64,000 bases of DNA from Escherichia coli (GTDB lineage: Bacteria; Pseudomonadota; Gammaproteobacteria; Enterobacterales; Enterobacteriaceae), in NCBI RefSeq assembly GCF_041248615.1, contig NZ_CP158426.1. One strand, given 5' to 3'. Under the pieces are notes generated by a model. It saw nothing but the letters and a program-made list of their open reading frames with translations. It was not told the DNA's origin and ran no database searches. Position numbers and translations under genes: made by a program. Positions 1-7,360 of the stretch are shown here, one piece after another. Position 1 is the first letter of the stretch. Each line of letters starts with the position of its first letter.

Positions 1-93
1 GCAGCAAATGCTTTTTTCATTGTGAAAAATTTCCATCTATAAGCCACCTCAATGTGGCGTCAATGAGTGTAGCACTGACTTTTGTTTCGTCCA

Positions 94-116
94 CAAAAAA
101 GCCCGCAGCGCGGGCT
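94..116 (-). terminator. Intrinsic terminator immediately after the 179-aa ORF stop
   Basis: GC stem agcccgc/gcgggct (100-116) with plus-strand A6 run at 94-99 (T-run on minus strand); overlaps stop codon 116-118. Confidence 0.55.
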
Positions 117-655
117 TACCAAAACTTGTACCACGGGGATTTATCCTTCAATGGACAATCCTTCCATCGTGTGGCCAACCATTCATATTCTTTAAAATAT
201 GTGTTTATGTTTTCTTTTTCTCTAATGGCTTGTATAAGAGGTAGCGCAATCTGATAGTTATTTACAACGGAGCTGTAAAATACTTCCTTAATCATGGTCT
301 CATCATAAGTTTTCCGCTTCACGCTCACAGCCATGCGTTCGTAGAAACCTAGACAGTAAATTATTTCTCTCTTCTCTGTCTTTTCTTCATCCGTAAGATC
401 AGCCTGCCCATTGCTTGGATACATATAAGAGCGGAATGATTTGTTCGATTCGTGAATGCGGCGCATAGTAGATAGGCCTTTCTTATAATCTACATCAAAC
501 CTGCTTTCACCAAGGAATACTGAAGTGTGTACTTTTCTCGCTGTATTTACATTATAAATAATAGTAGCGATAGCTATGAACAAGCCAAGCGAAACCGCGA
601 CTGCACTTACGATTTGAGCCACAGCCATGGCAAATTGCATTTCTTCACTTAACAC
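116..655 (-). CDS. Hypothetical membrane-anchored protein (prophage moron); no family assignable
   Basis: 179-aa ORF from GTG at 655 with GGAGA 7 nt upstream (alternative ATG at 640); single N-terminal hydrophobic helix AMAVAQIVSAVAVSLGLFIAIATIIY then charged soluble domain; AT-rich; own terminator. Confidence 0.55.
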   Translation of the reverse strand: MLSEEMQFAMAVAQIVSAVAVSLGLFIAIATIIYNVNTARKVHTSVFLGESRFDVDYKKGLSTMRRIHESNKSFRSYMYPSNGQADLTDEEKTEKREIIYCLGFYERMAVSVKRKTYDETMIKEVFYSSVVNNYQIALPLIQAIREKENINTYFKEYEWLATRWKDCPLKDKSPWYKFW

Positions 656-676
656 AAACTGTCTCCAGACATGAAA

Positions 677-696
677 ACGGGGCCTAATGGCCCCGT
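677..696 (-). promoter_or_regulatory. Perfect palindromic hairpin in the leader of the 179-aa gene (possible attenuator or stabilising stem)
   Basis: acggggcc-taat-ggccccgt, followed on minus strand by TTTC; preceded by a 10-codon mini-ORF with strong SD. Confidence 0.3.
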
Positions 697-840
697 CATT
701 AAACTATCCGAATGTTAAACGCCTTCGTACTCGTCAAATTTTCTCATGTGGGCTCCTCCTGTATCGGTGCCTAATCGCTATGGATCACCCGTGAGGTAAT
801 AGTAAGCTATTCACCTGCAATCTGTACAGAATTATTTAAA

Positions 841-856
841 GGCACATCCCTGTGCC
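841..856 (-). terminator. Putative terminator downstream of antirepressor gene
   Basis: Hairpin ggcaca-tccc-tgtgcc 10 nt after ant stop, followed on minus strand by TTTAAATAATT. Confidence 0.4.
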
Positions 857-865
857 GCCGCCCCG

Positions 866-1576
866 TCAGAAGAACCCTGCCTTGTCGTTGATGTATTCCG
901 CGTGAGTCTGGATATCACGCAGGCATTTGCTCACACCGACGATGTAGCAAAACATGGTGGTCAGCTCCGCCGCCGCGCCCGATACGTCGTGCCCGTCGTC
1001 CTGTAACTGGTTCAGCAGATTCATCAGCAGTGAGTTCTCCGTCAGGCCGAGAACACCAGACGGAGAATGAATCAGACTGCGGTAGCCGGGCTTCAGTGGG
1101 GCGCTGTAGGTTTTGTTCTCTATCTTCATTGCCTGCATCACTGCTGATGCTGTGGCGTTGGCTACCTGGTCGGCAACCATCTTTATGCGTTCTTCCTGCG
1201 GGAGCGAGTTTTTAATGTAACTTCCGGTGCGGCGGATCTGAGGAAGAACCTCACCTGTAACCCATTTACGAAAGCGGTAGGGGATAGTGCCTGGTGTCAC
1301 CGCATCGCGGCAGCGGAGGATCAGTGTGTAGAGGCCTGACTCGGAGATGATGTTGATCTCTTTTACTCGGCTGTCAAAAATCGCACGATGTTCATGCCCT
1401 ATGTTGAACATAGACCTTTCATCATCATCCAGTTTTTCAAGTGATTGGGTGACGTTTTGGATACGCAGCGCACTACAAACGTCTTGGGCTACAAACCATG
1501 GTTGGCCATCGATAATGATGGAACGGATAGGGTTAACAGATTCAAATTTGAAGATGGCAGTTTGAGCATTAGCCAT
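866..1576 (-). CDS. Phage antirepressor, Bro-N domain family
   Basis: N-terminal FKFESVNPIRSIIIDGQPWFVAQDVCSALRI matches Bro-N/KilA-N-type antirepressor signature; ATG at 1576 with GGAGAT SD (track ORF begins at upstream in-frame GTG 1591). Confidence 0.8.
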   Translation of the reverse strand: MANAQTAIFKFESVNPIRSIIIDGQPWFVAQDVCSALRIQNVTQSLEKLDDDERSMFNIGHEHRAIFDSRVKEINIISESGLYTLILRCRDAVTPGTIPYRFRKWVTGEVLPQIRRTGSYIKNSLPQEERIKMVADQVANATASAVMQAMKIENKTYSAPLKPGYRSLIHSPSGVLGLTENSLLMNLLNQLQDDGHDVSGAAAELTTMFCYIVGVSKCLRDIQTHAEYINDKAGFF

Positions 1577-1731
1577 GGTGGTTATCTCCACTTAGTGATT
1601 TTAATCACCACCGCAACGCCAATTACTGGTGGTGAACTGGACAAGGTTGGCGTACCGGCCTAAGTGGTACCGGCGTCCTTTCGGACCCCTGCCCAGCCCA
1701 CCATAATTCGGATATAGCTGTGCTTAACGCA

Positions 1732-1755
1732 TAAAAAAACCACGTCTGGCGTGGT
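1732..1755 (-). terminator. Putative intrinsic terminator between small paralog gene and ant
   Basis: Stem accacg-tctgg-cgtggt (1739-1755) with plus-strand A7 (T7 on minus strand) at 1733-1739. Confidence 0.45.
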
Positions 1756-1891
1756 ATGCGCCACTTAGTAACTCGGGACGCCAATCCCGGCACTGGATTT
1801 TGCCAGTGCCAGATTACTATGGCACAAGAGGAGTGCGATGTAAATTTACCGCAAAGGTAAATATAAGCACTCCAGTTGGTAATTGCAAACC

Positions 1892-2149
1892 TTATCTGGT
1901 TTGTTTTCGTAATTGTTCGGCACAATAGTCGAGATGTGTTTGCAGATCCCGCATAGACATCTGTGAGCTGGTGACGTAGTTAATCAGTGCAGTCAGTTCG
2001 GCAAGTGGGCCATCGACATTAAATCCATCCTTATCGAGATCCCGGAGTAATTTCATCAAGTGCGATCCCTCCACCAGTGACCTGACGCCTCCCGGCGTGT
2101 GAATCCTTTCGGTAAATCCGTCTTCCAGTGGATAGTGATACTGCTGCAT
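1892..2149 (-). CDS. Small hypothetical protein (86 aa), paralogous to C-terminal domain of the adjacent antirepressor
   Basis: ATG at 2149 with GGAGAAG SD; shared motifs with Ant C-terminus (IH-S/T-P-G-GV, LxExSxLMxLL, DGxxVxG, AELT, RD-I/L-QTH); longest ORF extends to 2272 but lacks RBS. Confidence 0.55.
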   Translation of the reverse strand: MQQYHYPLEDGFTERIHTPGGVRSLVEGSHLMKLLRDLDKDGFNVDGPLAELTALINYVTSSQMSMRDLQTHLDYCAEQLRKQTR

Positions 2150-2344
2150 CTTATCTTCTCCATGCAATAACTGTATATTTATACAGTAGCAAATAATTTG
2201 TTTGCTATCCAGCACGTTTTGCAAATCACCTGAAAGGTAATATCTATTCGTATTTACAGTCTTTCTATCCATATGTGGTTTTTCAGGTAATAGAATAACC
2301 AGATATGCGGCGCAACGGGTGCTGCGACTATCTGGAGATTTAAC

Positions 2345-4927
2345 ATGACGGTCTCAACCGAAGTTGACCACAACGAATACACCGGTAACGGAGTTACGAC
2401 ATCGTTTCCGTATACTTTCCGCATTTTCAAAAAATCCGACCTGGTTGTTCAGGTGTCTGACCTGAACGGGAACGTAACAGAATTGGTTCTGGATACCGGT
2501 TATACAGTAACTGGAGCTGGCACTTATAGTGGCGGTTCTGTGGTTCTTCCGTCTCCGCTTGCTACTGGATGGAGAATTACGATAGATCGTGTGCTTGATG
2601 TAGTACAGGAGACAGATCTTCGCAATCAGGGAAAGTTTTTTCCCGAAGTGCATGAAGATGCCTTTGACTACCTGACGATGCTGATCCAGCAATGTTTTGG
2701 GTGGTTCAGACGTGCATTGATGAAACCATCTTTGCTTGCAAAATATTACGATGCAAAGCAAAACAGAATTTCTAACCTTGCAGATCCATCACTTGAGCAG
2801 GACGCTGTAAATAATCGCTCAATGCGTAATTATGTCGATGCTGCAATCGCCGGAGTTGTTGGTGGTTTTGGTTGGTTTATTCAGTATGGTTCTGGGGCAG
2901 TATACAGAACGTTCCAGGATAAGATGCGTGACGTTTATAATGTTAAAGATTATGGGGCGAAAGGTGACAATATTAACGATGATACGCTAGCATTTATTGC
3001 AGCAGCAAATGCTCTCGGAGAGGGCGGAAAGTTATATATTCCAACAGGAACATACAATTTAACTGGTCCAGTTAATATACCACCAGTGAATATGTGCGGC
3101 GATGGGCAGGGTGAAACAGTTATTGTGTTTGACAATACCACATCACCAAAAGACGGCTTTGTTTTCGCTGCGCCAACTAAATATGATATTGAATTTGGTT
3201 TAAGTCACCTTACAGTTAAAAGAAAAGGCGGGAATGGAGCTAATGCTATATATACCCCAAGAGGTGTCGGGCTTAACCATCTAAGACCAAAACCAACATT
3301 TAGATTTTTATCTTTCTGTTCTGAAACTGCAAATATTGATTCTGATGAATTCGCTCAGAAATACGGCTGGGAATGGTCTTTTAACTGTGGTGATAGTTGG
3401 CAGTTCACAATCGAACGCATTGATGCTGTTGGATGTTATCAGATAGCCAAAAGTTATAATGAACAGTTCCTTGATGGATTCATTCGCACCGCTCCAGAAG
3501 AGGGGATTTTATCAATGCGTGTGAGTGATATCACAACGCATAATGTTGCAAATTTTTTTGAAATTAAGCAGAAGACATATTTTACATTGCTTAATATTGA
3601 TGCCGCCAAGGCATTACGAGGCATTTACGACGCTGATGATCGTATATTTGAAACGAATCGTTATGCTTATGGTGAATGTATATGCACAAATGTTGGTATT
3701 AATGCCCAACTTGAACCAGTACGGCTGGATAACAGATTCCTGCTCATCATGAATGGTATGTTTATTCACCGCGCAGCAAAAGGTTACGATCATGGTCTGG
3801 AATGGGTTGGTCTTAAGCTTAGTCGTGCTCGCGTGTGTTCATTCCAGGGAATTGAGATCGGCACTGCCAGAGGGTATTCAGGGACTAAGAAAGGGATTGT
3901 TCTTGACGCCGGTGATGCAAATAACTTTACCAATGTAACTTTTGGTTTGCTTGATGTGTGCGCACAGATTGGCGATTCCAATTCACAGTATGGTGCCAAC
4001 TTTGCAACATGCTTTAATAATGTGAGCATTAATGCTGACACCGTATTGTTATTCGATTTGCAGCTATGCAGAAATTTCCATTGTGATGGATACGGAGCAT
4101 CTTCTGCCTACACTCTTCAGCAATTCCATAGGAACAGTGATGACACAAGCAATACTTATACATTTAGTAATGTAGGTAAACACAATCTCTACACTGACAA
4201 CTCGCTGTACCTACATAATTCTGCTTCGCTGGAGAACGGGAAGAATATACGTATTGATACACGAAACGGATTATCTGTTAGCACTCAAGCAGATACTGGT
4301 TCCGCAGGAAATAACTTCCTTATAATTCGTAGGACTGGTGTTGATATAGACAGTTTTGAGTTAAGGACTCGCAGTACAGCAGGTGCATATACATATATTA
4401 ATACACCTGAAACTCATTTTTCTGGCCTTATAAAACCAACTGTTGATAATGTTAACTCAAACGGAACATCAGCATTTCGATGGTCACAGGTATACGCTGG
4501 TACTGGCAGTATCAACACGTCGAATGAAGAGCTGAAATTGCGTATTGAGGCTGACGAGAAAACAACAGAATCAGAGCGTCTTGCTGCGCTTGAAATAAAG
4601 GAAAATATCTGGAGGTTTAAATTTAAAGATGCAGTAAAGATCAAGAGTGATGGCGCTCGGATTCATTTCGGTGTTGGTGCACAAACTGTAGGTAATATTC
4701 TCAGAAAATACGGTCTTGACCCTAATAACTATGCGTTCTGGTGTTATGATGAATGGGATGATATTTATGCTCCAGAAGTATTGATTAGGAGTGTTAAAAA
4801 CAATGAAACAGGAGAGTGGTACGACGAGGAATATTACACAGGAAGGCAGATTATTATTAAACCTGCTGGCTATCAGTATGGTATCAGATACGAGGAACTT
4901 CTGATGTTTATTCTTATGTTTATTTAA
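2345..4927 (+). CDS. Phage tailspike: conserved N-terminal particle-binding domain, right-handed beta-helix (pectate-lyase-like) depolymerase domain, C-terminal peptidase-S74-type intramolecular chaperone domain
   Basis: 860 aa; ATG 2345 with GGAGA SD; N-terminus TGNGVTTSFPYTFRIFKKSDLVV typical of podoviral tailspike anchors; VKDYGAKGDNINDDTLAFIAAANA beta-helix entry motif; C-terminal S726-NEELK ... EIKENIWRF chaperone-like region. Confidence 0.85.
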   Translation: MTVSTEVDHNEYTGNGVTTSFPYTFRIFKKSDLVVQVSDLNGNVTELVLDTGYTVTGAGTYSGGSVVLPSPLATGWRITIDRVLDVVQETDLRNQGKFFPEVHEDAFDYLTMLIQQCFGWFRRALMKPSLLAKYYDAKQNRISNLADPSLEQDAVNNRSMRNYVDAAIAGVVGGFGWFIQYGSGAVYRTFQDKMRDVYNVKDYGAKGDNINDDTLAFIAAANALGEGGKLYIPTGTYNLTGPVNIPPVNMCGDGQGETVIVFDNTTSPKDGFVFAAPTKYDIEFGLSHLTVKRKGGNGANAIYTPRGVGLNHLRPKPTFRFLSFCSETANIDSDEFAQKYGWEWSFNCGDSWQFTIERIDAVGCYQIAKSYNEQFLDGFIRTAPEEGILSMRVSDITTHNVANFFEIKQKTYFTLLNIDAAKALRGIYDADDRIFETNRYAYGECICTNVGINAQLEPVRLDNRFLLIMNGMFIHRAAKGYDHGLEWVGLKLSRARVCSFQGIEIGTARGYSGTKKGIVLDAGDANNFTNVTFGLLDVCAQIGDSNSQYGANFATCFNNVSINADTVLLFDLQLCRNFHCDGYGASSAYTLQQFHRNSDDTSNTYTFSNVGKHNLYTDNSLYLHNSASLENGKNIRIDTRNGLSVSTQADTGSAGNNFLIIRRTGVDIDSFELRTRSTAGAYTYINTPETHFSGLIKPTVDNVNSNGTSAFRWSQVYAGTGSINTSNEELKLRIEADEKTTESERLAALEIKENIWRFKFKDAVKIKSDGARIHFGVGAQTVGNILRKYGLDPNNYAFWCYDEWDDIYAPEVLIRSVKNNETGEWYDEEYYTGRQIIIKPAGYQYGIRYEELLMFILMFI

Positions 4928-4930
4928 AAT

Positions 4931-4950
4931 ATAGCGCAGGGATGCGCTAT
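4931..4950 (+). terminator. Putative terminator after tailspike gene
   Basis: Hairpin atagcgca-ggga-tgcgctat 4 nt after stop; T-rich tail is weak. Confidence 0.4.
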
Positions 4951-5343
4951 TCAACTATTTTATAAAATTAATAACTATTCATGCGATATAATGTGGCCTC
5001 TTTTATCTTTGCAGAATTAAAAACTATAGAAAATATTTTGTATTATTATAAATGCTTCTGGATCATATTAATCAGTTTGCCATCTATTAGAACTTTGATT
5101 ATTGATGCATCAATTATTTAACATAGTGGTTGTGCGCAACTCCACTAACGATTGAATATAGATTGTTATTTTTGTTTACACTGTCACACAAGAACATCCT
5201 TACCTGTCAATCAACATTATTATTTTTTGATTCCATGATGTTGATTTGTGATGTAAAAAAATACATATTAAACCATATATGGATTGTAATTCGTGGTTAC
5301 AATTCTTGTTGTTTTTTTATGGTGAGATAAAAAAGGTGTTTTA

Positions 5344-5745
5344 ATGTCATTTCAATTAACAGGAGAGTCAATAAATCAATGGCTTAGCCTTGGTTCTCTA
5401 GCAGCGGTGATAGCAGGAGTGCCTCCAGAAGTAGCTCTTGGGTCTTTGTCAGGAGCGGTAATTTTTGTTACCTCTGCTGTAGAGTATCCTGTTCGTCGTC
5501 GTGTACTCTTGTCGATACTCAGCTTTCTTTGTGGTCTTCTCTTTTACAAACCAACTGCATCAATTCTTATAGGCATAGCCAGTCTAATTCCTACCATTAC
5601 TCAGGACTCTTTCGAGAAAGGGATTGTTTTCTCTGCTGGCGCATTTGTGTCAGCAATAGTCGCAGTGCGAATTGGCATCTGGCTCTATCACCATTCCGAT
5701 AATCCACGCGAGTTAATTCCTGGGAGAAAAGACGATGGTAACTAA
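5344..5745 (+). CDS. Holin-like membrane protein (3-4 predicted TM helices)
   Basis: 133 aa, several hydrophobic helices, charged C-terminus; first gene of lysis cassette upstream of endolysin. Confidence 0.5.
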   Translation: MSFQLTGESINQWLSLGSLAAVIAGVPPEVALGSLSGAVIFVTSAVEYPVRRRVLLSILSFLCGLLFYKPTASILIGIASLIPTITQDSFEKGIVFSAGAFVSAIVAVRIGIWLYHHSDNPRELIPGRKDDGN

Positions 5746-6043
5746 TGAGCTTGTTTTGCTTATCACCAATGCAGTTATTTGTACTGGCATAGCAATTCGC
5801 GTTGTCACATTCCGGCGTAACGGCTCTCAACACCGAAGGTTGGGAGGCTGGCTTGCTTATTTCCTGATTGTTGCTGCAGCTAGTATTCCTGTTCGTGTCG
5901 TCTATGCAATCTGGTTACGTACGCCAATGGCTGTGGATTTATCTGAGGTCATTATCAACGCTGTCATGCTTGCAGCGGTTATTAAAACGCGCGGTAACGT
6001 CGTGCAGATTTTTAAAATAACGAGGTCTAAACATGGAGATTAA
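5735..6043 (+). CDS. Holin/antiholin-like membrane protein
   Basis: 102 aa, three hydrophobic segments and basic C-terminal tail [19 protein letters not shown]; GGGAGA SD; overlaps the previous and next genes. Confidence 0.5.
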
Positions 6044-6662
6044 ACAATTCCAGCGAGCTGCTGGTATTAGCGAGGCGCTGGCCGCACGCTGGTTCTCGCA
6101 TATAACTTCTGCGATGAAAGAGTTTGGTATCAGCAAAACCGAAGATCAGGCAATGTTTATTGCTCAGGTCGGGCATGAGTCTGGTGGTTTCACCAGGTTG
6201 CAGGAGAATTTCAACTACAGTGTCAGCGGTCTAGCTAACTTCGTTCGGGCTGGGCGTCTCACTCAGGGGCAGGCTAATGCACTTGGTCGCCGTGCTGGTG
6301 AACCACCATTGCCACTTGAGCGCCAGCGCGCGATCGCAAATCTGGTATACAGCAAACGCATGGGTAACAATGCTCCCGGCGATGGCTGGAATTACCGTGG
6401 GCGCGGGCTTATCCAGATTACCGGTTTGAATAACTATCGTGACTGCGGAAACGGCCTAAAAGTGGACCTGCTGGAGAATCCTGAGCTGTTGACGCAGGGC
6501 GAATACGCGGCTCGTAGCGCGGCGTGGTTCTTCTCCAGCAAAGGCTGCATGAAGTATACCGGCGATATTGCACGTGTAACTTTGATTATCAATGGTGGCA
6601 GGAACGGCATCGACGACCGGAGAGCGCGGTACATCACTGCCAGTAAGGTGCTGGCGGTATGA
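6033..6662 (+). CDS. Endolysin, glycoside hydrolase family 19 (chitinase-like lysozyme)
   Basis: 209 aa; motifs [10 protein letters not shown] and [16 protein letters not shown] resemble GH19 phage endolysins; lies between holin-like genes and Rz. Confidence 0.75.
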
Positions 6663-7141
6663 TCTGGGCATTCGTAAAAGCATACTGGAAACAGTTGCTT
6701 ATCGTGGCGGTGCTTGCTGTTCTGGTCATATCAGGAGTTGTTGCCTGGAATGTACACGGTAGCCGTCAGTACGACGCCGGGTATGCACAGGCGAAGGAAG
6801 ACCGCAAAGCTGAAGATGAGAGAGTTCGTCAGCACTACGAACAGGAGAAAGCGACCAATGAACGTGAAGCTCAGCAGAGGATCGACCAGGCGCGCAATGA
6901 TGCTCTTGATGCTGCCGCTCGCGCTGGCCGGTTGCAGCAACAACTCTTTGCCATCCGTGAGCAGCTCAGGCAGTATAACGCCATTGTCGGCGCTGGGACA
7001 TCAGCCGCAGACACCGGAGTTTTGCTTGCCGACGTGCTCAGCAAATCTCTCGAGAGAAACAGACAACTGGCAGAGTATGCTGACCGGGCAGCCGAAGCCG
7101 GAAGAGTCTGCGAAAAACAGTACGACACTCTGACCAGATAG
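6659..7141 (+). CDS. Rz-like inner-membrane spanin (i-spanin)
   Basis: 160 aa; N-terminal TM helix then Gln/Arg/Ala-rich predicted coiled coil; start ATG overlaps endolysin stop (ATGA). Confidence 0.7.
6858..7133 (+). CDS. Rz1-like outer-membrane lipoprotein spanin (o-spanin), embedded in +1 frame of Rz
   Basis: ATG 6858 with AGGAGAAAG SD; lipoprotein signal [26 protein letters not shown] (lipobox LAGC); fully contained within Rz. Confidence 0.6.
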   Translation: MNVKLSRGSTRRAMMLLMLPLALAGCSNNSLPSVSSSGSITPLSALGHQPQTPEFCLPTCSANLSRETDNWQSMLTGQPKPEESAKNSTTL

Positions 7142-7251
7142 CATGGCATTTTTCATGGTACTGATTTCCGGTGACGGTATATAAAACGGTACTAGAAAAA
7201 TGAAGTTTTGGAAAAATGTTATCACTCAATTTGTTATGATTGTCGTAAATA

Positions 7252-7266
7252 ATTGAGTGGGAATGA
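7252..7266 (+). other. guaA: Candidate attR core / terminal codons of guaA (IEWE-stop)
   Basis: att gag tgg gaa tga reads I-E-W-E-stop, which I recall as the GuaA C-terminus; upstream frame is broken by stops, so only the last codons are host-like here. Confidence 0.4.
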
Positions 7267-7296
7267 TTTTGATCCCTGCACTATGAATGAACAAAA

Positions 7297-7322
7297 CCCT
7301 CTGTTACTACAGAGGGTTTTTT
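7297..7322. terminator. Bidirectional intrinsic terminator between prophage end/guaA remnant and yfgI
   Basis: ccctctgt-tact-acagaggg stem with A4 upstream and T6 downstream. Confidence 0.6.
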
Positions 7323-7360
7323 ATCTTCAAGAATTATAGGCTTGAAGTTACTTACATCGA

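Follow-up and report, generated by a model that had tools for sequence, protein, structure and literature searches.

The first 7268 bp of the window, i.e. of the whole 64 kb stretch of Escherichia coli DNA analysed here, are almost certainly the attR-side end of a temperate podophage of the phiV10/epsilon15 type (genus Uetakevirus) that is integrated at guaA. The guaA integration site of Uetakevirus phages is well known, and the feature is ordinary and already understood. The window opens inside the prophage, and its 7.25 kb of phage DNA correspond to the right arm only of an element of about 39.6 kb, with attL, the integrase and the structural genes lying outside. A tyrosine integrase would have recombined the phage attP with the E. 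coli attB across a 17 bp core that covers the last five codons of guaA including the stop codon. As phage and host share one and the same core, a complete guaA would then be restored at attL, outside the window, and an orphan five-codon copy of guaA would be left behind at attR (7252-7266). The right arm combines a late lysis cassette with an exchangeable host-range cassette, i.e. the receptor-binding part of the tailspike, and a putative divergent induction module (table 1).

Table 1. Features of the prophage right arm and the adjoining host DNA (window positions).
Feature	Position	Strand	Basis or remark
Phage-derived DNA, right arm of phiV10-like (Uetakevirus) prophage	1..7251	.	megablast: HEMP4, ZX5, phiv142-3, TL-2011b, phiV10, epsilon15
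DUF4760 membrane-anchored protein, 179 aa, moron	116..655	-	Pfam DUF4760 1e-30; phrog_2284 (function unannotated)
Bro-N antirepressor (predicted), 236 aa from ATG at 1576	866..1576	-	Pfam Bro-N 8e-19; phrog_130 anti-repressor Ant
C4-type structured RNA, antirepressor leader	1625..1708	-	Rfam RF01695, 66 bits vs gathering score 45, full-length
isrK-type small RNA with own terminator, upstream of C4	1733..1809	-	Rfam RF01394, 67.2 bits vs gathering score 50, full-length
orf85, homologue of epsilon15 gp19 / phiV10 p24	1892..2149	-	phrog_450; 98.8% aa identity to p24
Near-consensus LexA (SOS) box TACTGTATAAATATACAGT	2170..2188	-	20 bp upstream of orf85 start codon
Mosaic tailspike, 860 aa	2345..4927	+	phrog_1171 tail spike
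AT-rich non-coding spacer, 27.6% GC	4928..5343	.	position of phiV10 oac / epsilon15 gp21/gp22
Holin-like membrane protein, 133 aa, epsilon15 gp23 / phiV10 p27 homologue	5344..5745	+	phrog_198 holin; 91% aa identity to p27
Holin, 102 aa	5735..6043	+	phrog_217 holin; 81% aa identity to phiV10 p28
GH19 (chitinase-class) endolysin, 209 aa	6033..6662	+	phrog_181; 95.7% aa identity to phiV10 p29; RefSeq name
Rz-like inner-membrane spanin, 160 aa, DUF2514	6659..7141	+	phrog_312; 93% aa identity to phiV10 p30
Rz1-like outer-membrane lipoprotein spanin, 91 aa	6858..7133	+	phrog_11621; 94% aa identity to phiV10 p30a
P arm of attP kept in attR	7142..7251	+	attR/attL/attP/attB alignment
attR core ATTGAGTGGGAATGATT	7252..7268	+	matches published ZX5 17-mer (PMC9782041)
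Native guaA rho-independent terminator	7293..7320	+	terminator scan; aligns with K-12 downstream of guaA
yfgI (179 aa), first host gene past prophage	7361..7900	-	then yfgH, yfgG, pdeF/yfgF

The junction at the 3' end of guaA

Host DNA restarts at 7252 with ATTGAGTGGGAATGATT, i.e. the five last guaA codons (IEWE-stop) followed by TT, and the 15-mer ATT GAG TGG GAA TGA is present as a single copy in the 64 kb window, exactly where the sequence-only reading had placed it. With window positions 6900-7500 as a megablast query, 5,411 of 5,426 complete E. coli genomes matched, and in those free of the phage (more than 5,000) the match begins at query position 353, which corresponds to window position 7252, under the label guaA/yfgI. 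Megablast matches to phage records stop at window position 7268/7269. Host matches starting at 7252 and phage matches reaching 7268/7269 therefore overlap by 17 bp. For phage ZX5, this core and integration at the guaA 3' end were demonstrated by PCR and Sanger sequencing, and the attP of phiV10 and epsilon15 was given as the same 17-mer (PMC9782041); phage TL-2011b is likewise reported to lie within guaA (PMC3293862). When attR, attL, the phiV10 and epsilon15 attP and the K-12 attB were aligned, the core proved invariant—identical in both attP, in K-12 attB and in attL and attR of the near-clonal strain NRZ14408—and the flanks switch in the way that recombination of attP with attB would produce. 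A junction of Rz, attR and yfgI like that of the window is found in 362 of the 5,426 complete genomes (approx. 6.7%).

The sequence-only reading had given guaA as the direct neighbour of yfgI in K-12, which is correct (the spacer is 92 bp), and its proposal of a phage integrated at the guaA 3' end agrees with the shared, published core. It had also described a broken frame upstream of the last guaA codons. This is not a frameshifted guaA: homology stops at 7252, and the in-frame TAA at 7246-7248 is phage DNA. It had further expected a replacement guaA terminus at the far junction. In NRZ14408 that end is restored, but the terminus is merely the identical core, which leaves GuaA unchanged, and it comes with a phage-borne copy of the terminator.

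This copy is a hairpin terminator in the phage attP arm, the 9 bp stem of which is the same as that of the guaA terminator. Integration thus deprives guaA neither of its coding end nor of a terminator. The native guaA terminator now sits 3' of the phage lysis cassette; after integration, the phage-borne copy would thus end guaA and the native one would receive the lysis transcript. The P arm also contains GTGACGGTAT at 7171-7180, which aligns with an annotated integrase-binding site of epsilon15 (the record also annotates IHF sites) and may likewise be bound by the integrase.

What the complete element looks like can be seen in NRZ14408, which is 100% identical to the window over positions 9000-58000, i.e. 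49 kb of flanking chromosome, and differs from it by 40 bases in 1-9000. Its podophage-type prophage, with which window 1-7251 is collinear, measures 39,592 bp from core to core, has both attL and attR, and gives the gene order guaB, guaA, Int, early genes, terminase, portal, capsid, tailspike, lysis, yfgI. The far junction, which lies outside the window for the source genome, carries in NRZ14408 the integrase and intact guaA that the sequence-only reading had anticipated: guaA encodes 525 aa ending in ...PPATIEWE, and beyond it come another copy of the core and, next, a P4-type tyrosine integrase (416 aa, 99.3% identical to phiV10 Int). From NRZ14408 we infer that the genome of the window also has attL and the integrase and probably the entire left 32 kb of the prophage, and the latter may well be active.

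A conserved lysis cassette and a mosaic tailspike

The lysis cassette lies directly before attP in the order known from phiV10 and epsilon15, with 81-96% amino acid identity to phiV10; together with the attP arm, it shows nucleotide identities of 89.6% to phiV10 and 81.6% to epsilon15. Three transmembrane helices are annotated for the gp23/p27 homologues in the phiV10 and epsilon15 records, and Rz1, with the lipobox LALAGC, is embedded in Rz in the +1 frame. All of 1-7251 is phage-like coding sequence with two holin genes, the endolysin gene and Rz/Rz1 at its end; the sequence-only reading had likewise described phage genes that end with a lysis cassette. Also its likening of the element to epsilon15/phiV10-like podophages holds, both for the lysis/attP region and for the endolysin and the tailspike N-terminus, which it had singled out for comparison.

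In the tailspike, a particle-binding N-terminus of Uetakevirus type (aa 1-166) precedes a beta-helix depolymerase domain, and an intramolecular chaperone domain of the S74 type forms the C-terminus. Residues 1-166, a conserved N-terminal domain of the epsilon15 gp20 type, are 69% identical to phiV10 and 72% to epsilon15, and residues 190-860 share 97% amino acid identity with a tailspike that NRZ14408 carries on a P22-like phage. Pfam detects Pect-lyase_RHGA_e at 198-268 (1e-11) and, weakly, End_tail_spike at 686-725 (0.003) and Peptidase_S74 at 726-790 (0.0028). The exact tailspike allele of the window was found in none of the searched collections, and the source is therefore not exactly NRZ14408.

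In a nucleotide comparison, homology to phiV10 is absent between 2780 and 5356. This interval includes the spacer at 4928-5343, which has no convincing ORF; O-antigen conversion genes between tailspike and lysis cassette, characteristic of phiV10 and epsilon15 but no requirement for the genus, are absent here. At the other end of the arm, the low-GC (39%) DUF4760 gene is accessory and is missing from phiV10 and the GF4 prophage; PADLOC and NCBIfam gave no match for its product.

Genera are delimited by the ICTV at about 70% nucleotide similarity over the whole genome. Isolated phages (PAS61, phiv142-3, ZX5, HEMP4, TL-2011b) cover 80-86% of the leftmost 24 kb of the prophage in NRZ14408 at 97-98% identity, and isolated phages cover 45-56% of the right 7.3 kb of the element, as present in the window, at 90-95%; these values refer to the two arms on either side of a middle section of approximately 8 kb.

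A divergent module with a predicted role in induction

Divergently from the tailspike, a putative induction module comprises the LexA box, the small gp19-like protein, isrK-like and C4-like RNAs and the Bro-N antirepressor (75% amino acid identity to phiV10 p23), with the two RNA matches directly upstream of the Bro-N gene on the same strand. Not a single chance occurrence of such a LexA box is expected in the window, and both phiV10 and epsilon15 have it at the same place; LexA is likely to bind at TACTGTATAAATATACAGT. orf85 resembles residues 155-228 of Ant (43% over 74 aa, E 7e-16) and is, by this similarity, a paralogue of the antirepressor C-terminal domain. In coliphage 186 (Tum) and the Gifsy phages, induction proceeds by a LexA-controlled antirepressor. 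The window fits this type, with the box at the promoter of the operon and a repressor candidate in the NRZ14408 prophage that consists of HTH domains only, i.e. without the S24 self-cleavage domain, LexA binding and antirepressor activity being predicted. The order of isrK, structured leader and antirepressor is also that of Gifsy-1 (PMC4825925), and it seems probable that LexA and the RNAs govern the antirepressor.

A further, tentative idea, which we consider somewhat less probable than not, is that Uetakevirus phages have an undescribed two-tier SOS switch, along with an attP-captured guaA terminator. In a first tier, the conserved LexA box would drive the gp19-like protein, a stand-alone antirepressor C-terminal domain and the only such gene of epsilon15. 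In a second tier, found in phiV10-like members, read-through beyond the isrK-type terminator and the C4-type leader would free the full Bro-N antirepressor. If true, the guaA terminator would also have been taken up into attP and retained there, which would keep guaBA as well as the lysis operon terminated once the phage is integrated.

Alternative explanations and related systems

The right arm could belong to a complete prophage or be all that survives of a cryptic one with its integrase side deleted. The window itself, which shows 7.25 kb of the phage but not its left end, would be compatible with a remnant, and the recombination patch that sets its tailspike apart from all sequenced relatives means that this is a distinct genome. 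However, all nine of the nine right-arm ORFs are full length in comparison with phiV10, and the complete prophage of NRZ14408, with its intact integrase and both att cores, sits in a flank that is identical over 49 kb, which makes a remnant very unlikely. Still less likely is an element of another type, such as a P22-like prophage, a lambdoid one or a hybrid, with an acquired Uetakevirus lysis/att module. The P22-like body of the tailspike and a mosaicism such that any isolated phage covers only about half of the right arm could be read in this way, but the tailspike N-terminus, gp19 homologue, antirepressor, lysis cassette and attP arm are all of Uetakevirus type, and the early, terminase, portal and capsid genes, which occupy the left 24 kb in NRZ14408, are 97-98% identical to those of ZX5, HEMP4, PAS61 and phiv142-3, with ZX5 being described as a Uetakevirus (PMC9782041).

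Finally, a chimeric join of a phage contig and the chromosome during assembly can practically be dismissed: the identical junction of Rz, core and yfgI recurs in the 362 independent complete genomes and agrees with attR as determined by sequencing in ZX5 lysogens (PMC9782041). Nothing specific speaks for such an artefact, except that the tailspike patch could reflect polishing across two paralogous tailspike copies.

Among its relatives, ZX5 (lysogen E. coli YO1+) is 94% identical to the right arm over 53% of its length and 97.4% identical to the left arm of the NRZ14408 prophage over 82%. It shares the layout of anti-repressor, tailspike, lysis genes, attP and int, but differs in the tailspike receptor-binding domain and accessory genes, which make up the uncovered 47% of the right arm. 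phiV10, the type of Uetakevirus phiV10 with O157:H7 as its host, has the same core, nearly identical attP arms including the terminator, and the LexA box at the same place. In contrast to the window, however, it has an O157-specific tail fibre body and the O-acetyltransferase gene oac between tail fibre and holin, 2.6 kb that are replaced here by another receptor-binding domain and the AT-rich spacer; moreover, the DUF4760 gene is missing from it and its Bro-N protein ends early, with a truncated C-terminus. The Salmonella phage epsilon15 again has the same core, the LexA box upstream of gp19 and the shared order gp19, tailspike, (conversion genes), gp23, holin, endolysin, Rz/Rz1, attP, int, but it infects another host genus, carries gp21/gp22 for seroconversion and lacks a Bro-N antirepressor beside gp19.

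Two further systems resemble single parts of the arm. The P22-like 'phage_14408_1' of NRZ14408 (NZ_LT599830.1) matches the receptor-binding and chaperone part of the tailspike at 97% amino acid identity, whereas its P22 gp9-type head-binding N-terminus, the neighbouring CatB-type O-acetyltransferase, the integrase and the genome type are different. The IsrK-orf45-AnrP module of Gifsy-1, like immI c4-ant of P1/P7, combines a leaky-terminator small RNA, a structured leader and an antirepressor on the same strand (PMC4825925). Unlike in Gifsy-1, the RNAs described here follow a LexA-box promoter and a gp19-like ORF, and do so in a podophage, with their regulatory role being predicted from sequence.

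The attachment site at the guaA-yfgI junction

The first 7.25 kb of the window form the end of a phiV10-like prophage that is probably inducible. In K-12, guaA adjoins yfgI with 92 bp between them. When window 6900-7500 was compared by megablast with 5,426 complete E. coli genomes, 5,411 gave a match; in insert-free genomes this match starts at query base 353, i.e. window 7252, beneath the features 'guaA | yfgI', and in phage genomes it runs to window 7268 or 7269 and no further. Because host matches begin and phage matches end at these positions, phage-type and host-type DNA share exactly 17 bp, ATTGAGTGGGAATGATT, which bears out the sequence-only reading that a prophage had inserted at the 3' end of guaA and abuts yfgI. 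The same 17-mer is unchanged across a five-way alignment of attR in the window, attL from the nearest genome, the attP sites of phiV10 and epsilon15, and attB of K-12, and the flanks switch as recombination between attP and attB predicts, with phage DNA to the left and host DNA to the right at attR, and guaA to the left and phage DNA to the right at attL. It is also the published attP/attB core of phage vB_EcoP_ZX5. TL-2011b, a relative with a match to the window, is likewise placed within guaA (PMC3293862). tRNA-linked integration was dropped, since the window has no tRNA genes.

The terminal guaA codons IEWE-stop (ATT GAG TGG GAA TGA) lie exactly where they had been noticed, at 7252-7266, as the sole copy of this 15-mer in the window. 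The 'broken frame' reported upstream of them, however, is no frameshift: guaA homology stops at 7252, and the in-frame TAA at 7246-7248 belongs to phage DNA. By analogy with experimentally characterised relatives, a tyrosine integrase would recombine attP with the same 17 bp where guaA ends. The orphan IEWE-stop at attR is the duplicate of the core. As the core holds the last five codons plus the stop codon, GuaA is unchanged in the lysogen; for annotation, the orphan codons are thus to be read as a duplicated att site and not as damage to guaA.

Integration also rearranges terminators. The phage arm placed after guaA at attL holds a terminator, AACCCTCTG-TTTTTG-CAGAGGGTT followed by a T-run (L001 7722-7745), and the native guaA terminator, found at window 7293-7320, shares its 9 bp stem; the terminator block is kept in phiV10, in epsilon15 (with one stem change) and in K-12. 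With same-stem terminators on both sides, integration swaps them, so that the phage copy goes to guaBA and the host copy to the lysis operon, where each would be expected to function as in characterised relatives. Core, terminators and gene content are direct observations. A phage-borne duplicate of the guaA terminator is a minor point of interest for phage biology.

Extent and prevalence of the prophage

The window begins within the prophage and the integrase side falls beyond it, which leaves room for the reading that this genome keeps only a prophage remnant. We regard this as very improbable. The near-clonal RefSeq genome NRZ14408 (NZ_LT599825.1), which is 100.000% identical to window 9000-58000 and shows only 40 base differences over window 1-9000, carries an essentially identical prophage in the order xseA, guaB, guaA, integrase, early genes, terminase, portal, capsid, internal/ejection proteins, tailspike, lysis cassette and yfgI. 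Its guaA is intact (525 aa, C-terminus ...PPATIEWE), and the integrase gene, which begins 192 bp past the guaA stop codon, encodes 416 aa with 99.3% identity to phiV10 Int. The distance between its two core copies is 39,592 bp, the element has a GC content of 48.7%, and its left 24 kb are matched by the isolated phages PAS61, phiv142-3, ZX5, HEMP4 and TL-2011b with 80-86% coverage and 97-98% identity. In the window itself, the lysis genes are all full length and 81-96% identical to those of phiV10. Excision competence would be expected from the experimentally characterised relatives.

The suggested kinship with epsilon15 and phiV10 is supported, and so is the earlier interpretation as a whole. 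Of the 5,426 complete E. coli genomes, 362 (6.7%) have 80% or more of the Rz-core-yfgI junction, so that about one in 15 has a phiV10-like prophage at the guaA locus. The remainder of the window, 7300-64000, is collinear core chromosome (yfgI, yfgH, yfgG, pdeF, ppx, ppk1, purNM, upp, uraA, hda, the hyf operon, dapA, bamC, purC, acrD, narQ, tkt), with no Rfam or tRNA match and nothing unusual in 7300-58000.

Features of the prophage right arm and its chromosomal flank (window coordinates)
Feature	Position	Strand	Remarks
DUF4760 membrane-anchored accessory protein	116-655	-	Pfam 1e-30; phrog_2284; 39% GC
Bro-N antirepressor	866-1576	-	
C4-type RNA	1625-1708	-	Rfam C4 antisense RNA, full-length match, 66 bits, above gathering score
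isrK-type sRNA	1733-1809	-	Rfam, full-length match, 67.2 bits, above gathering score
orf85	1892-2149	-	98.8% identical to phiV10 p24 (epsilon15 gp19 homologue)
LexA box, predicted	2170-2188		TACTGTATAAATATACAGT; near-consensus; just upstream of orf85; none expected by chance
Tailspike	2345-4927	+	860 aa; residues 1-166 69% / 72% identical to phiV10 / epsilon15
AT-rich spacer	4928-5343		27.6% GC; no credible ORF
gp23-like holin	5344-5745		
Holin	5735-6043		
GH19 endolysin	6033-6662		
Rz	6659-7141		
Rz1	6858-7133		Embedded in Rz; lipobox
attP P arm	7142-7251		GTGACGGTAT at 7171-7180 aligns with epsilon15 feature annotated as integrase-binding site
yfgI	7361-7900	-	Followed by yfgH, yfgG (-) and pdeF/yfgF (+)

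Exchangeable blocks and the tailspike

Homology to phiV10 in the right arm is limited to 853-2779 and 5357-7268, so two blocks differ, one made up of the tailspike body and the conversion gene, the other containing the DUF4760 gene. The latter is missing from phiV10 and from the relative GF4, and lies in a variable accessory region where related prophages (GF4, EC17CM13) have other genes or none. The single paper that brings up DUF4760 yielded nothing informative. PADLOC gave no match for the DUF4760 protein, Ant, orf85, the tailspike and the gp23-like protein, nor did NCBIfam for the first four of six proteins submitted, and a role of the accessory genes in defence was dropped for want of support from either. 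At the position of oac in phiV10 and of gp21/gp22 in epsilon15, the window prophage has the AT-rich spacer and no O-antigen conversion gene; a remnant of oac is ruled out, as 4928-5343 has no phiV10 homology.

In the tailspike, the suggested comparison with epsilon15 and phiV10 confirmed kinship for the N-terminus, beyond which there is none to the tailspikes of either phage. The body shows a pectate-lyase-like beta-helix signature and weak matches to endosialidase tail-spike and S74 chaperone domains (E ~0.003); its best match among 50,697 phage records, PSK1, is only 58% identical. Residues 190-860 are 97% identical at the amino acid level to a tailspike encoded by a P22-like phage, which is present in the NRZ14408 assembly as a separate 41 kb record (NZ_LT599830.1), the shared receptor-binding/chaperone module spanning window 2912-4960 and positions 6001-8012 of the P22-like locus. 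Two unrelated podophages of NRZ14408 thus share a host-range module, and a CatB-type O-acetyltransferase adjoins the P22-like tailspike there. The host-range cassette, i.e. the tailspike body either alone or together with a gene for O-antigen modification, is exchanged in one piece among podophage lineages, in this case Uetakevirus and P22-like.

The exact window tailspike is not on record, the nearest complete genome being 98.7% identical over the tailspike, and 38 of the 40 differences from NRZ14408 fall within it, at 2952-3403. Here the Uetakevirus copies of NRZ14408, GF4 and EC17CM13 represent one allele and the window another, which agrees with the P22-like tailspike at the differing sites yet is not identical to it. 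The co-resident P22-like tailspike is ruled out as the donor in a simple gene conversion, because about 30 differences in this stretch are private to it. The patch reflects either recombination from a third, unsampled tailspike allele or an artefact of polishing between paralogous tailspike copies.

A putative SOS-responsive induction module

Upstream of the tailspike lies a divergent module, transcribed away from it, whose LexA box is kept in position in phiV10 (L002 4281-4300) and epsilon15 (L006 516-535). Its first gene, orf85, encodes on its own a paralogue of the C-terminal domain of the Bro-N antirepressor (74 residues, 43% identity, E 7e-16), which is missing from the apparently truncated Bro-N protein of phiV10. 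Between these two genes sit the isrK and C4 matches, neither of which is annotated in phiV10 or in the RefSeq records examined. In the repressor candidate of the NRZ14408 prophage there are HTH domains and no S24 domain for self-cleavage, and a preprint reports that a DNA-damaging microcin induces Uetakevirus prophages, both of which fit LexA-controlled antirepressor induction. The conserved box and the S24-less repressor candidate suggest SOS induction via such an operon; together with the isrK and C4 RNAs preceding the antirepressor, the box hints at how such prophages may sense DNA damage.

Overall, this element belongs to a known phage group and sits at the attachment site known for it. 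An SOS-controlled, RNA-gated, two-tier antirepressor circuit, along with terminator capture by attP, would be a plausible if modest addition. The order of the RNAs and the antirepressor gene has a counterpart in the IsrK-orf45-AnrP locus of Gifsy-1, where an sRNA with a terminator, a structured leader and an antirepressor follow one another in the same order (PMC4825925).
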